Assembly (NCBI GenBank): GCA_964016885.1 | Contig: OZ024760.1 | Location: forward strand, 13,206,001-13,270,000 | Source of the DNA: Eledone cirrhosa | Lineage: Eukaryota | Reading direction: 5' to 3' | Length of the DNA: 64,000 nt | Shown: positions 25,236-40,578 of the stretch, piece by piece | How positions within the stretch are numbered: the stretch's first letter is position 1 | Layout: the number at the start of each line of letters is the position of its first letter | Notes under the pieces: model-generated | Told to the model about the DNA's origin: nothing | The model's database searches: none | The model's input: only the letters and a program-made list of their open reading frames with translations | Position numbers and translations under genes: made by a program

Positions 25236-25478
25236 GAAACGGTACGATTGATTTTGAAGAATTCCTACAAATGATGGCACGAAAAATGAAAGAAACGGAC
25301 AGCGAGGAAGAATTACGAGAAGCTTTTCGTGTTTTTGACAAGGACGGAAACGGATTTATTAGTGCGGCCGAACTAAGGCACGTAATGACCAACCTGGGTG
25401 AGAAACTGACCGATGAAGAAGTTGATGAAATGATTAGGGAAGCTGATTTAGACGGGGACGGAATGGTAAATTACGAAG
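25236..25478 (+). CDS. CaM: Calmodulin-like exon 4 (EF-hands 2-4)
   Basis: Encodes [86 protein letters not shown] acceptor, G|GTAAGC donor, 243 nt. Confidence 0.97.
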
Positions 25479-27047
25479 GTAAGCAATAGATATTGTTTTA
25501 TCTGGAGTTAATATTGGTAGTTATTGCTACAATGTGTGACGTAGCTGGACTAGTTAGCATGTACATAGACATGCATACACACATACTTGCATACACAGAT
25601 ATAGATAGTGAGAAAGCACAAGGGTGAGAGAAAGTGTATTATATAAAAAGGAAGGGTCGTTGGAACAACAGATGGAAAGGGTGACAGAGAGAAGAGGAGA
25701 GGGGGAGAAAGAGAGAAAGGAAAGGGTAAGATAGAGAACAAAAGAAGGAGAAAGAGGGGGAGAGAGAGAGAGAGAATTAAATATACAAATAAACAGACAG
25801 ACTTAAATGATTTGGCATAGAACCACAATATGGAGTTGGTGGACTAATTATATATATATATATATATATATATGTATGTATATATGTATGTATATATGTA
25901 TGTATATATGTATGTATATATGTATGTATATATGTATATATGTATGTCCACATATGCACATATATACATATGCACACATACATACATATGTACACACACA
26001 TACATATATACGCATACATATATACACACATACATACACAAATACACTCACACATAAACACATACGCAAACGTACACGCACACACATAAACATACACACA
26101 TGCATATGTACACACACACACACACACACACACACACACACACATATATATATATATATATATATATATATATATATATATATATACTCGTGGCATAATA
26201 AATGTTAAGTTTTTCAATTATAACACATTACGTATAAAGTGTGTATATACATATATATACTTATACACATATATATATATACCCTCGCTCAAACACACAC
26301 ACTCTATATACACACAGACATGCTGGCAAGTCTGTTTTCTAGTTTAATATTATACAAAATTTTGTGAAATTCTCTAATGCCGCCCACGGTTAGCGCAAGT
26401 AATTAGTGTTGTGTGTGTTTAAATATTCAATACGAAGGAAAAAACGATGTATTAACCGTGTTGTCTACCGCACAGGTGGCCATCTTCGGAGAAGAATTTG
26501 AATATTTCGTTCTGTAGTAATACTGCAAGACGGCCAGTCGGTAAAAAGTAATTTAATTATTTAGCTACGTGCTAAATAATATTGTGACCCAGTTAGGTGT
26601 GTTCAGTGTCGCTTGATCGTCTAGAAATAGTAGCCAAACCTCCCTCACAGAACATATTATTGTCTTTAAAAAGATGTATTACAGTTGGTGTTGTTTTTTT
26701 GTTTTTTTTTTCTGTGTTAATGGTGATGGTGGTTGTAGTAGTAGTGGTGGTGGTTGTTGTTGTGGTAGAGGTGGTGGTTGTCGTGGTAGAGGTGGTGGCA
26801 GTGACAGTGGTTTTGGTTTTGGTATTTGTATAGGCAGAGGTGATGGTTGTGACAACACAAACAACAACATCACCTCCACCATCACCACCACCTCCACCAC
26901 AACAAACAACAATACAAACAATAACAACACCAACAAATTCTCTCATCACGTGACTCATTAATTTAGTTCTAATATATACATTTCTTCCTCTCTTTCTCTC
27001 TCTTTCCCTCTCTCTCTTTCTTTCTCTTTTTCTATGTTTCCTTTCAG

Positions 27048-27094
27048 ATTTTATGGGGTTTGCCGCTTCTGTGCTCATGATAACATCAGAATGA
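27048..27094 (+). CDS. Candidate alternative (proximal) terminal exon of calmodulin-like gene: D-FMGFAASVLMITSE*
   Basis: Very long pyrimidine tract ending CTTTCAG; phase-1 compatible; gives VNYE-DF keeping the conserved Phe; AATAAA at 27608 and 28325. Confidence 0.5.
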
Positions 27095-30000
27095 CGTGGG
27101 ACAGTCAACCTTTGGCCTCGGTTGAGGCCTTAAAGAAACTATAAGAAAACCACACACATACACACTCACACACACACATACACACACATACACTCACACA
27201 CACAGACACATATACAAACACACACAAGGACACAGACACTCACACACACACACACATACACACTCACACACACACACATACACACACATACACTCACACA
27301 CACACACATATACAAACACACACAAGGACACAGACATACACACACACATACACACACACATACACACACACAAACACACACACAAACACACACACACACA
27401 AATACAGACAGAAAAGAAAAAAAACTTATCCGACATTTTTATTTTGAGAAACATCATTAACTGTGCTAAATATATATTATTATGTAAACACGCATGGATA
27501 ATATATAAGTCACTAATATATTAAATATACATACATGCATACATTTGTATATATGTGTGTATGTTTGTGTGTGTGTGTGTGAGAGAGAGAGTGTGTGTGT
27601 GTGTGTAAATAAATATATATTATATAAATGTATACATATATGTATATCCAAGTTACACCCCCTGGATATATATATATATATAATATATATATATATATAT
27701 ATATATATATATAGGGACTGGGGATGGGACATCTCCCCCCTCCTCCCAAGTAATTATATTTTTCCCCTCAAACTACCAAAACACATCTATTTGTATATGC
27801 GCCACAAATTATTTACAAGATATGCAGAGATAAATGAGATAGATAAAGAGAGGGGGAGAGTTTGGGAGTAATTGATATAGAGAGGGGGAGAGTTTGGTGG
27901 TAATTGATATAGAAAGGGGTAGAGTTTGGTGTTAATTGATATAGAGAGGGGTACTGGAAGAGAGTTCCGTGTAGTAGATATAGAGAGGGGCGAGAGTTTG
28001 AGGGTAATTGATATAGAGAGGGAGATTGGAAGAGAGTTCCGTGTAGTAGTGTGTTTGTAGTTTCTCCCCAAACTACCAAACCACATCTATTTGTATATTT
28101 CCTACCATTTATGTACATGTTATGTTTATCACATATCGAAGATTTCTGACCATTTTAAAGTGCAAAGAGCTAAACTAATCACTACAACTAAATTGACCAA
28201 ATTTTGTCCCATCCTCCCACCCAATTTAAATATGCTTCCACCGCCTGTTATATATATATATATATGTGTGTGTGTGTGTGTGTGTGCATGCTTACATTTA
28301 TGTATCAGTTGTACTAGAGCGAGAAATAAAATTCTAATTTTATATATATATATATATATATACAAATCTAAATGTATCTATATAAAATACACACTTACAC
28401 ACATACATACACACACACACACAAACACACACACACACACACACACAAACACACACACATACATAGAAGCACACATATGCAAACACATTATGAAGATTTC
28501 GGAAAGTATTTAAAACATTTACCAAACCTATTTGCCGTGTTTCCATTTCCACCTGTGTATCTTTGGTTGTTTTCTGCTCCAATGTCGGTGAAGTTTGTCA
28601 ATCTCATCCCTATTGTCTGCTTCAGTTATTTTTTTTTCTTTCTTTCTATGATTTCTAAAGATACGAGGAATTATTTGCATATTTTAATCCTTGGTATGCA
28701 TTCATACATTTCTGCTGTGCTGTCTCCATAAACTCTACCTACAGTCTTTCGTAACCCTTTGGTATTTCAATATATATTTATATGTTTATCTATCTATCCA
28801 TCTACATATTTACATATGTGGGTGTGTACATATGTATACATATATATATATATATATATATATATATATATACACACATATATATATACGCTTGTTTTTT
28901 AATTTTGTATATTTATATACACTGAATGAAGGAGTACTGATTGTGAAGTCAAAATATATATATATATATATAAGCGTGGAAGATGGACGTTAAACGATGA
29001 TGATGATATATATAAAGAAAATGTATCTATATATATACACATTATATATATTTATATATATATATATATATAATGTATATAAGAGCGAATGATGATTAAA
29101 ATGAAAGCGAATGATAAGTTTCATTCCTCAGCTACCCTTTGGTGTCTAAGTGGATTCAACATATGAATAGTTTTGATAGATCCAGTGAAATGAATGGCAA
29201 GGATCTCTAGACAATAGCTGATCAAGGGATTTCTGTCTGTTTTATTCCTTTTTGTTCTTTTCCGTTATTTTTCTTAATATTTCGGCGGTGAATCCCATTT
29301 TTCACCGCTCCTCATATCCAATAATACTGAGCTCGAATGTTGTTTCTTCTAGAAATATAGGCAATCAATATTTATCAGTGATGATGTTGCTACTGTTGTT
29401 GTTATTGTTGCTGCAGTTGCTGCTGCTGTTATTTTTAGTCAGAAGAGGAACGCCAATGCCCAATACCTTTTTTTAGGGCTTCCCAGGCTGGTTTTTAAAA
29501 AAATATTTCTCTGTGTTTTTATTTTTATATTTTTATATTAATGGATTGGTTTAAAGAAAACGGGATATGTGCCCATGGCGTACGCAGGCCGTCCGAGACC
29601 GGTGACAATCAAGCGGTTAAATTTCCCTTGTTTTGTGTTGGCAGAATTGTTAGAGCGTCCAACACAATGCTTTGTTCTGGCTCTTTACATTCTGAGTTTA
29701 AAATTCCACCAAGGTCAACTTTGCCTTTCATCCTTACAAGATCGATAAAATAAAGTACCAGTCAAGTACTGGAGTCGATTTAATCGACTTTCCCCCTCGC
29801 CCAAATTGCTGGCCTTGTGCCTATATAAGAAACCATTATTATTATTATTATTATTATTATTATTATTATTATTATTATTATTATTATTACGCCGTTACAG
29901 TTATTGTTATCAGAGTTACATTTCACTGTTTTTGGTTGGAGCAATACTTCTATATTTCTTTCTTAAACAACAGCTAAGTGTATCTTGGAGAACATTGATA

Positions 30001-40094: not shown

Positions 40095-40503
40095 AGAGTT
40101 TGTGTGGTGGACCAGGTTGAAAGGACTGAAGACAGACACTTTTCTCTTCGGCCAATCCCTCATCAACTTTTCCAAGTTTCACTTGGAAAAGATGGTGAGG
40201 ATGGAGAGAGAAGAGCTGCTCCCAGTACATTTGCTAAAAGGTGGGTGAATGTAGTGAGAATGGGCCTACTCTGAGCATGTGCCTGTAGGCTGGTTAATTT
40301 GAGGAGAGGGCTCTCCTCGAAGCGTCAGGTGTTTCAGGATTGTTGAGGTACTTGAATCCTCCCTGGGAAATTTTCATTGTTATTTTATTGTTATCAATAT
40401 TTTTTACCCGATACATATGTAAACCCCCACTGTCCCTGTCTATTGTATTGTCCCCTATCTGTCGGCCGTTGTGGCTAATAAAGAAACCATTATTATTATT
40501 ATT
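40095..40503 (+). mobile_element. 3' end of a Tx1/L1-like LINE just upstream of the last calmodulin exon
   Basis: VWWTRL...MVRMEREE..FAKRWVNVVRM, then AATAAA and an (ATT)n tail. Confidence 0.55.
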
Positions 40504-40549
40504 CTATCAGTTTATTATAAATATTGACTTTTATTCTATTTTCTTACAG

Positions 40550-40578
40550 AATTCGTCACCATGATGACAGCTAAATAG
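40550..40578 (+). CDS. CaM: Calmodulin-like terminal exon: E-FVTMMTAK*
   Basis: TTCTTACAG acceptor then AA TTC GTC ACC ATG ATG ACA GCT AAA TAG, the canonical calmodulin C-terminus. AATAAA at 40838. Confidence 0.93.

Follow-up and report, generated by a model that had tools for sequence, protein, structure and literature searches.

Among proteins, calmodulin is the standard example of invariance, and in humans one substitution of Glu140 or of Phe141 is enough to cause lethal arrhythmia. Could a gene of the calmodulin family rewrite this part of the protein by splicing? The question is raised by a 64,000-nucleotide stretch of the Eledone cirrhosa genome (assembly GCA_964016885.1, contig OZ024760.1, positions 13,206,001 to 13,270,000 of the forward strand; hereafter the window), in which a calmodulin-like gene carries two exons behind one donor. 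A sequence-only reading had proposed that they swap position 12 of the fourth EF-hand loop (EF4), residue 140 in the numbering of mature calmodulin used here, together with the last helix. We refer to the exon that completes Asp140 as the D exon and to the one that completes Glu140 as the E exon. Our analysis suggests that the D isoform probably has an EF4 of lower Ca2+ selectivity together with a rebuilt target pocket, and acts as a retuned sensor or as a competitor on shared targets.

Two exons behind a donor inside codon 140

The donor in question closes the coding exon at 25236..25478 (plus strand, as is the whole gene), which encodes the end of EF-hand 2 (EF2), EF-hand 3 (EF3) and EF4 loop positions 1-11. 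Its sequence, AG...G/GTAAGC with the slash at the exon boundary, sits one base into the codon for loop position 12, and the claim that the junction splits this codon was borne out by splice phase and reading frames. When the donor is joined to the E exon (coding part 40550..40579, AATAAA at 40838), G+AA gives Glu140, followed by FVTMMTAK and a stop; this is the canonical calmodulin end, EFVTMMTAK-stop, and translation reproduced it as predicted. When it is joined to the D exon (coding part 27048..27095), G+AT gives Asp140, followed by FMGFAASVLMITSE and a stop, so that the open frame DFMGFAASVLMITSE-stop replaces helix H. The D-exon acceptor (26958..27047) consists of branch-like TTAAT/CTAAT motifs at 26958/26969, a 93% pyrimidine tract, an 81-nucleotide AG-free zone and CAG. 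Both forms stay open without internal stops when joined to the upstream coding exons 12526-12568 and 19637-19780, and all exon flanks are AG/GT.

The D exon stands out from chance frames

Among 118 filtered candidates within the 15-kb intron, the acceptor at 27048 had the strongest pyrimidine tract, a rank that is weak as stand-alone evidence, CT repeats being common in this DNA. We then scored peptides with a profile built from the D tails of 14 non-cephalopod genera. The D exon ranked first of 407 AG acceptors followed by at least 10 open codons, with a score of 30.6; the runner-up reached 15.1 and the rest averaged -8.4 +/- 6.1 (z about 6). On positions 3-10 alone, with D and F dropped, one of 81,366 window peptides reached the D-exon score, in a pool that includes the exon itself. 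The second strong acceptor claimed at 27047/27048 thus led on tract and profile alike. The Octopus vulgaris record CAI9739520.1 ends in a homologous D tail with 14 of 15 residues identical, and the 47-nucleotide frame passed the wider conservation check, D tails occurring in 17 genera. Because the frame is conserved as D tails in other animals, the D exon in the window is, by these comparisons, not a product of chance. A recent tandem duplication of the E exon as its origin was ruled out, since the two exons share 8 of 30 bases in ungapped alignment.

Could the site nevertheless be dead in E. cirrhosa, either as a cryptic acceptor next to a CT microsatellite or as a disused relic? The tract does resemble a CT repeat and the genome is repeat-rich. 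However, the frame is intact, it has kept all but one of the residues of the O. vulgaris tail, it lies about six standard deviations from the other intronic acceptors, and it is single copy within the window. We regard a dead site as very improbable. A search of sequencing runs with the D exon listed no RNA run that contains it; the single run returned was of unspecified type.

The gene is a calmodulin-like paralog by sequence

The best sequence and fold matches of the gene were all calmodulin. Of its 129 core residues, 121 are the same as in insect canonical calmodulin, and the eight differences are K30S, T34I, P66E, T70Q, D78E, I85L, I130L and Q135M. Six of these (K30S, P66E, T70Q, I85L, I130L and Q135M) are shared with most orthologues, being found again in records from molluscs, brachiopods, annelids and nemerteans under the names calmodulin-A-like or neo-calmodulin-like, and several of the six are also present in an arthropod paralog. 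The paralog-diagnostic residues S30, E66, L85, L130 and M135 are all present in the window gene, which departs from the near-invariant 148-residue canonical sequence. Glu occupies position 12 of all four EF-hand loops in the E isoform, and is missing from EF4 in the D isoform. In a 39-row tree, the nearest rows to the window by path all belonged to this paralog (98% to P0251), and canonical calmodulins formed their own group (94/74) without the window. No well-supported clade contained the window, and monophyly of the paralog, with the arthropod paralog as its orthologue, was without resolution in this tree, which has few informative sites and a bootstrap that had not settled. Taken by its residues, the gene is a lophotrochozoan calmodulin-like paralog and not canonical calmodulin; the label of the earlier reading, calmodulin-like, holds in the narrower sense of a separate paralog.

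D tails recur across molluscs, a brachiopod and an annelid

D tails were found on the same paralog in 17 named genera, which span four mollusc classes, Lingula and Capitella. They comprise the cephalopod Octopus, the gastropods Pomacea, Babylonia, Littorina, Batillaria and Gigantopelta, the bivalves Pecten, Argopecten, Ylistrum, Mizuhopecten, Tegillarca, Mytilus, Mercenaria and Solemya, and, in addition, Liolophura, the brachiopod Lingula and the annelid Capitella. On this distribution, the D-exon feature is far older than the cephalopods. In nine species (Pecten, Ylistrum, Argopecten, Mizuhopecten, Mytilus californianus, M. trossulus, Littorina, Babylonia and Lingula) D and E forms are recorded together as one isoform series with neighbouring accessions, which supports the proposed two-exon switch between Glu140 and Asp140. 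For nine further species, the records read held the D form only. The RefSeq calmodulin-A-like and neo-calmodulin-like isoform sets (such as XP_033733497.1 / XP_033733504.1) have the same D and E ends on the same paralog and are orthologues of the window gene; they differ from it in being automatic records and, in bivalves, in a further 15 residues, a cassette within the EF2 loop for which the window gave no match with splice sites. Isoforms in RefSeq are modelled automatically, in most cases with RNA-seq as their basis. Three records from assembled sequencing runs (P0249, P0250 and P0251) have complete frames through all junctions into the D tail. They likely derive from mRNA, because their contigs of 964-1662 bases are too short for a gene with kilobase introns.

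The initial homologue search was dominated by multi-calmodulin fusions, with three close records among the 120 matches listed. Among 392 proteins fetched in total, 94 were paralog-type records of <330 residues. Of these, 35 had the D form and 28 the E form, 25 read through an intron and 6 were of other types, counts that are skewed by searches biased to D. A looser control scan of metagenome contigs returned 13 loci, comprising one spliced E-form transcript of the paralog, four insect-paralog genomic loci (one of them too short) and eight other or chance matches.

Two further variants were seen among these records. The O. vulgaris record CAI9739520.1 (P0150) omits the 144-nucleotide EF-hand 1 exon in frame, either as a genuine N-lobe-deleted isoform or through an annotation gap. 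Argopecten isoform X2 (P0212) has a third C-terminal variant behind the same donor (EFKTMVHGWVDG).

Last exon, cassette or dosage control

The D exon had been proposed as one of two alternative terminal exons, a description that fits the window best and does not extend to all relatives. In the window the stop lies within the D exon, no good donor follows in the 650 bases of 27048-27700, and a motif scan of this AT-rich DNA found hexamers that could serve in polyadenylation of a transcript ending with the D exon (ATTAAA at 27520 and AATAAA at 27608, interval 27520..27613). Because of these three features, the D exon is best read here as a last exon. In relatives, sister isoforms stop at, or read through, the D-exon donor. 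In Mizuhopecten the D tail runs on, and all 9 of its 9 further residues match the species' own E exon translated in a shifted frame. The Mercenaria and Planococcus tails continue in the shifted E-exon frame for four and two residues, respectively, and then stop; in both cases the E peptide was assumed from relatives, which counts against these two examples. The remaining 17 of 20 tails matched the shifted E frame at one to four residues, none of them through to the stop. These comparisons suggest that in relatives the D exon can splice onto an out-of-frame E exon and so serve either as a cassette or as a last exon. The window protein would be the same either way, since its stop is inside the D exon.

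An exon that precedes the canonical one and can be a frameshifting cassette might serve mainly for dosage control, with inclusion leading to an unstable or decayed product (a poison exon or a degron) and hence to less functional protein; the free divergence of the tail ends after position 151 would fit such a role. An exon induces decay when its stop lies more than about 50 nucleotides before the last exon junction, and a stop in the last exon escapes junction-dependent decay. For Mizuhopecten, Mercenaria and Planococcus the comparison places the stop in the last exon, and this speaks against induction of decay in these three relatives. The hydrophobic positions of the tail are also conserved in a helical pattern, as for a folded product, and D records are, in the D-biased sample, at least as numerous as E records. 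Dosage control as the main function is therefore quite unlikely.

Anatomy of the D tail and its predicted effect

Across the 17 genera, D140 and F141 occur in all tails, partly because of the way in which the tails were chosen, and M142 in 16. Position 144 is F, Y or L, position 145 is A, T or S, position 148 is L, I or V and position 149 is L, F or M, and 143, 146 and 147 vary freely. Hydrophobic residues at 141/144/148/149 against variable ones at 143/146/147 are the mark of a constrained helix face, that is, of constraint at the protein level. The earlier statement that Phe141 is kept and Met144 and Met145 are lost was upheld (17 of 17 D tails lack both Met), but the longer hydrophobic end that it described does not extend beyond octopod records: other tails are amphipathic, many ending in K/R, and the ends diverge freely past position 151. 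The AlphaFold model of P0251 has a single continuous helix across the D tail, about two turns beyond canonical helix H, and a fold search with this model returned calmodulins only.

The expected chemistry is taken from published work. Glu12 is the bidentate ligand of the EF-hand loop and Asp12 shifts selectivity to Mg2+ (PMC5983762, PMC9177970, PMC8622359), and in EF4 the bidentate position-12 ligand is E140 (PMC9849693). In human calmodulin, E140G raises the C-lobe dissociation constant (Kd) 10.8-fold and reduces CaV1.2 inactivation, and F141L raises it 4.8-6.0-fold and impairs this inactivation (PMC6243062). M144 is one of four C-lobe pocket residues around the target anchor (PMC8059062).

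From these data a mechanism can be proposed. A regulated choice between the D and E exons would produce a second isoform whenever the upstream D exon is taken behind the codon-140 donor. Asp in place of Glu at EF4 loop position 12 would lower Ca2+ selectivity and leave a Ca/Mg-mixed or low-affinity site, while the retained Phe141 should still allow the lobe to fold. Replacement of Met144 by F/Y/L and of Met145 by A/T/S would reshape the C-lobe pocket, and helix H would be about two turns longer, with a conserved hydrophobic pair at 148-149. With its N-lobe and EF3 unaltered, the D isoform would require more Ca2+ for C-lobe opening and would select other targets; alternatively, it may occupy calmodulin-binding sites and relay a blunted signal.

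Several points weigh against this mechanism. Splicing of the D exon in E. cirrhosa is likely, but it is presumed from conservation, and the weakening of EF4 is a prediction from EF-hand chemistry; predicted and measured EF-hand binding may differ greatly (PMC8622359). Most homologues are documented by computational annotation, and that the tails collected begin with D/F is partly an outcome of how they were searched for and chosen. The nemerteans Tubulanus and Lineus had the E form only, among the records read. A pattern scan of metagenome contigs gave no spliced D junction, at a low power illustrated by the single spliced paralog transcript in the control scan. The P0251 model is of modest confidence (mean predicted local distance difference test score 69; 67 at 141-150 and 50 at 151-158) and contains no ion. 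In addition, Asp140 occurs as a plain substitution in E-type ends, namely DFVSILLSKN in an ant paralog and DFVKMMMSR in Lineus, so Asp alone need not cripple EF4. Within the ants, Asp140 is fixed in the E-type end of the Temnothorax paralog (P0197, P0271, P0273-P0275), and Harpegnathos and Acromyrmex have Glu.

These substitutions bear on the explanation that the D exon is real and translated, that EF4 binds Ca2+ almost normally, and that the swap serves the new helix H, Asp140 being incidental to the split codon. The new helix could then act in target choice, in self-occlusion of the pocket or, via the often basic tail, in localisation. In addition to the point changes to Asp140 in E-type exons, this explanation is favoured by conservation that is strongest at 144-149 rather than at 140, by the K/R clusters that end many tails, and by the few residues that a split codon of the form G/xx allows. 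However, Asp and never Glu begins all 17 lophotrochozoan and 6 insect tails (selection bias applies to this count), when one third-base change would give Glu, and Asp12 is reported to reduce Ca selectivity. We therefore consider an incidental Asp140 unlikely, though the least unlikely of the alternatives, and retain the mechanism in which ligand and pocket both change.

A similar tail on canonical insect calmodulin

Does the D exon belong to the paralog alone? Insect records with a core identical to canonical calmodulin were found to end in D-F-[HQR]-x-[LI]-A-x-x-[IV]-[FLY]. They come from Myzus, Daktulosphaira, Parthenolecanium, Planococcus, Eumeta and Pieris, that is, from hemipterans and lepidopterans, and because the tails agree across two orders, the insect D-type tail is likely a genuine exon. 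In Pieris records P0290, P0387 and P0388, canonical calmodulin reads in frame through a short retained intron into the D-type exon, with the tail kept after an insert.

Under the lophotrochozoan profile, three of the six insect tails scored above every one of 2,972 null peptides, and 1, 2 and 6 null peptides matched the other three. With the reverse (insect) profile, 6 of 17 lophotrochozoan tails exceeded all nulls, and the scallop tails were matched by 85-197. On positions 3-10, scores were at background for the E exon and for the ant Asp140 variant. The D-tail pattern was absent from 20 further non-E tails of canonical calmodulin records, which came from fish, bird, spider and shrimp among others. 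As for control tails, 16 of 17 scored at background; the exception, Callorhinchus, reached p 0.005 without Phe141, and short matches of this kind can arise by chance. When the insect tails were tested by mean BLOSUM score and by shuffling, the results were weak (p 0.014-0.047 and 0.03-0.12, respectively). In the intron of the insect paralog, no D-like exon was found before the E exon in any of the three spanning genomic loci, two of which are identical in sequence.

On balance we lean, by a modest degree, towards the simplest account, one ancestral protostome exon that was already present before the paralog and canonical calmodulin diverged and was kept in the lophotrochozoan paralog and the insect canonical gene. 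Against a single origin stand the shortness of the signal (10 residues), the values of p 0.004-0.09 on positions 3-10 alone, and the fact that four of the six insect tails were found through a D-tail query. Convergence of insect and lophotrochozoan tails under the constraints of helix H is possible.

Further features of the gene and the window

The N-terminal segment is encoded at 12526..12568 (STEQTIKLSDEQVT), an exon located by tblastn with AG/GT flanks and a matching segment in the O. vulgaris record. An ATG exon 5' of 12526 was not located, and a scan for ATG/GTRAG upstream gave none. The exon at 19637..19780 (144 nucleotides, phase 1-1, located by tblastn and splice flanks) encodes EF-hand 1 and the beginning of the EF2 loop. 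An in-frame ATG lies just 5' of its acceptor (19606-19636), with a product that resembles the start of record P0263 (MSICDCFSVAEF...), and Argopecten records have five extra residues at the junction matching this acceptor; the ATG is possibly a conserved alternative start or acceptor.

The bivalve cassette in the EF2 loop (P0120, P0205-P0207, P0212, P0389-P0391) is conserved, with the form x3-[FYM]YG[PA]xQxNCCG[IL] over 15 residues. It would disrupt site II, so that splicing would act on two Ca2+ sites of the same gene. In the window intron 19781-25235 the best matches to it fell in a minisatellite and had no splice sites.

Two large minisatellites were seen, at 1383-3479 (60-bp unit x32, with 72-bp variants) and at 23569-24924 (34-bp unit x40, 97% identity); the latter stops about 310 bases short of the exon at 25236. 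On the minus strand at about 47440-47700, facing the calmodulin-like gene, lies an exon of a neighbouring translational-type GTPase with the P-loop GNVDAGKS and a Pfam GTP_EFTU match below the cut-off (E 1.7e-4), which we take to resemble GTPBP1. An Rfam search gave no matches.

Discussion

How does the swap compare with known systems? Canonical calmodulin (PDB 2bkh_B/1ooj_A from invertebrates and 10nk_B from vertebrates; insect Cam) shares with the window gene the four EF-hands, the 121/129 core and the E-exon end, whereas the window paralog has eight core changes and a second exon that replaces residue 140 onward. The vertebrate CALM genes are described as all encoding one identical protein (PMC6243062), and abalone as having four canonical calmodulin genes of five exons, argued not to be splice variants (PMC6171432). 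Human E140G and F141L and the engineered E140Q knock-outs likewise affect the EF4 position-12 ligand region, lower C-lobe Ca2+ affinity and alter channel regulation, but they are single disease or laboratory substitutions, whereas the window holds a conserved spliced replacement of the exit helix that retains an acidic ligand. Plant calmodulin-like proteins and centrins have Asp12 EF-hands with shifted Ca/Mg selectivity, fixed in separate genes; the window gene would switch by splicing, and its Asp12 is known by sequence alone. Alpha-actinins and P/Q-type Ca2+ channels splice EF-hand exon pairs to tune a Ca2+ site (PMC9177970), but these are other proteins with duplicated internal exons, unlike the dissimilar D and E exons of the window. 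The Calm1 3' untranslated region isoforms (10.1101/553990) also vary the 3' end of a calmodulin at the RNA level, with the untranslated region alone changing.

What is already known therefore comprises the isoforms as automatic database records, EF-hand splice tuning in other proteins, and Asp12 in separate calmodulin-like genes. No description of a splice switch of the EF4 ligand and helix was found in the accessible portions of the open literature, and an older, subscription or supplementary mention is possible; within the reach of these searches, a calmodulin gene in which splicing exchanges both, and in which the exchange is conserved, is undescribed.

Rewriting of the EF4 ligand and helix by splicing, in several animal phyla and perhaps in the canonical insect gene, would mean that calmodulin signalling is tuned at the level of the protein itself. 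If the insect tails are indeed the same exon, many invertebrates would produce, through splicing, a second, C-lobe-remodelled calmodulin, an unnoticed exception to calmodulin invariance and a regulated natural counterpart of the human E140 arrhythmia variants. The two natural isoforms, otherwise identical, offer a direct test of the roles of EF4 position 12 and of Met144/145. A further prediction is that channels and enzymes that depend on calmodulin have an overlooked regulator, both in the cephalopods and gastropods that are classic models of neurobiology and in pest insects.

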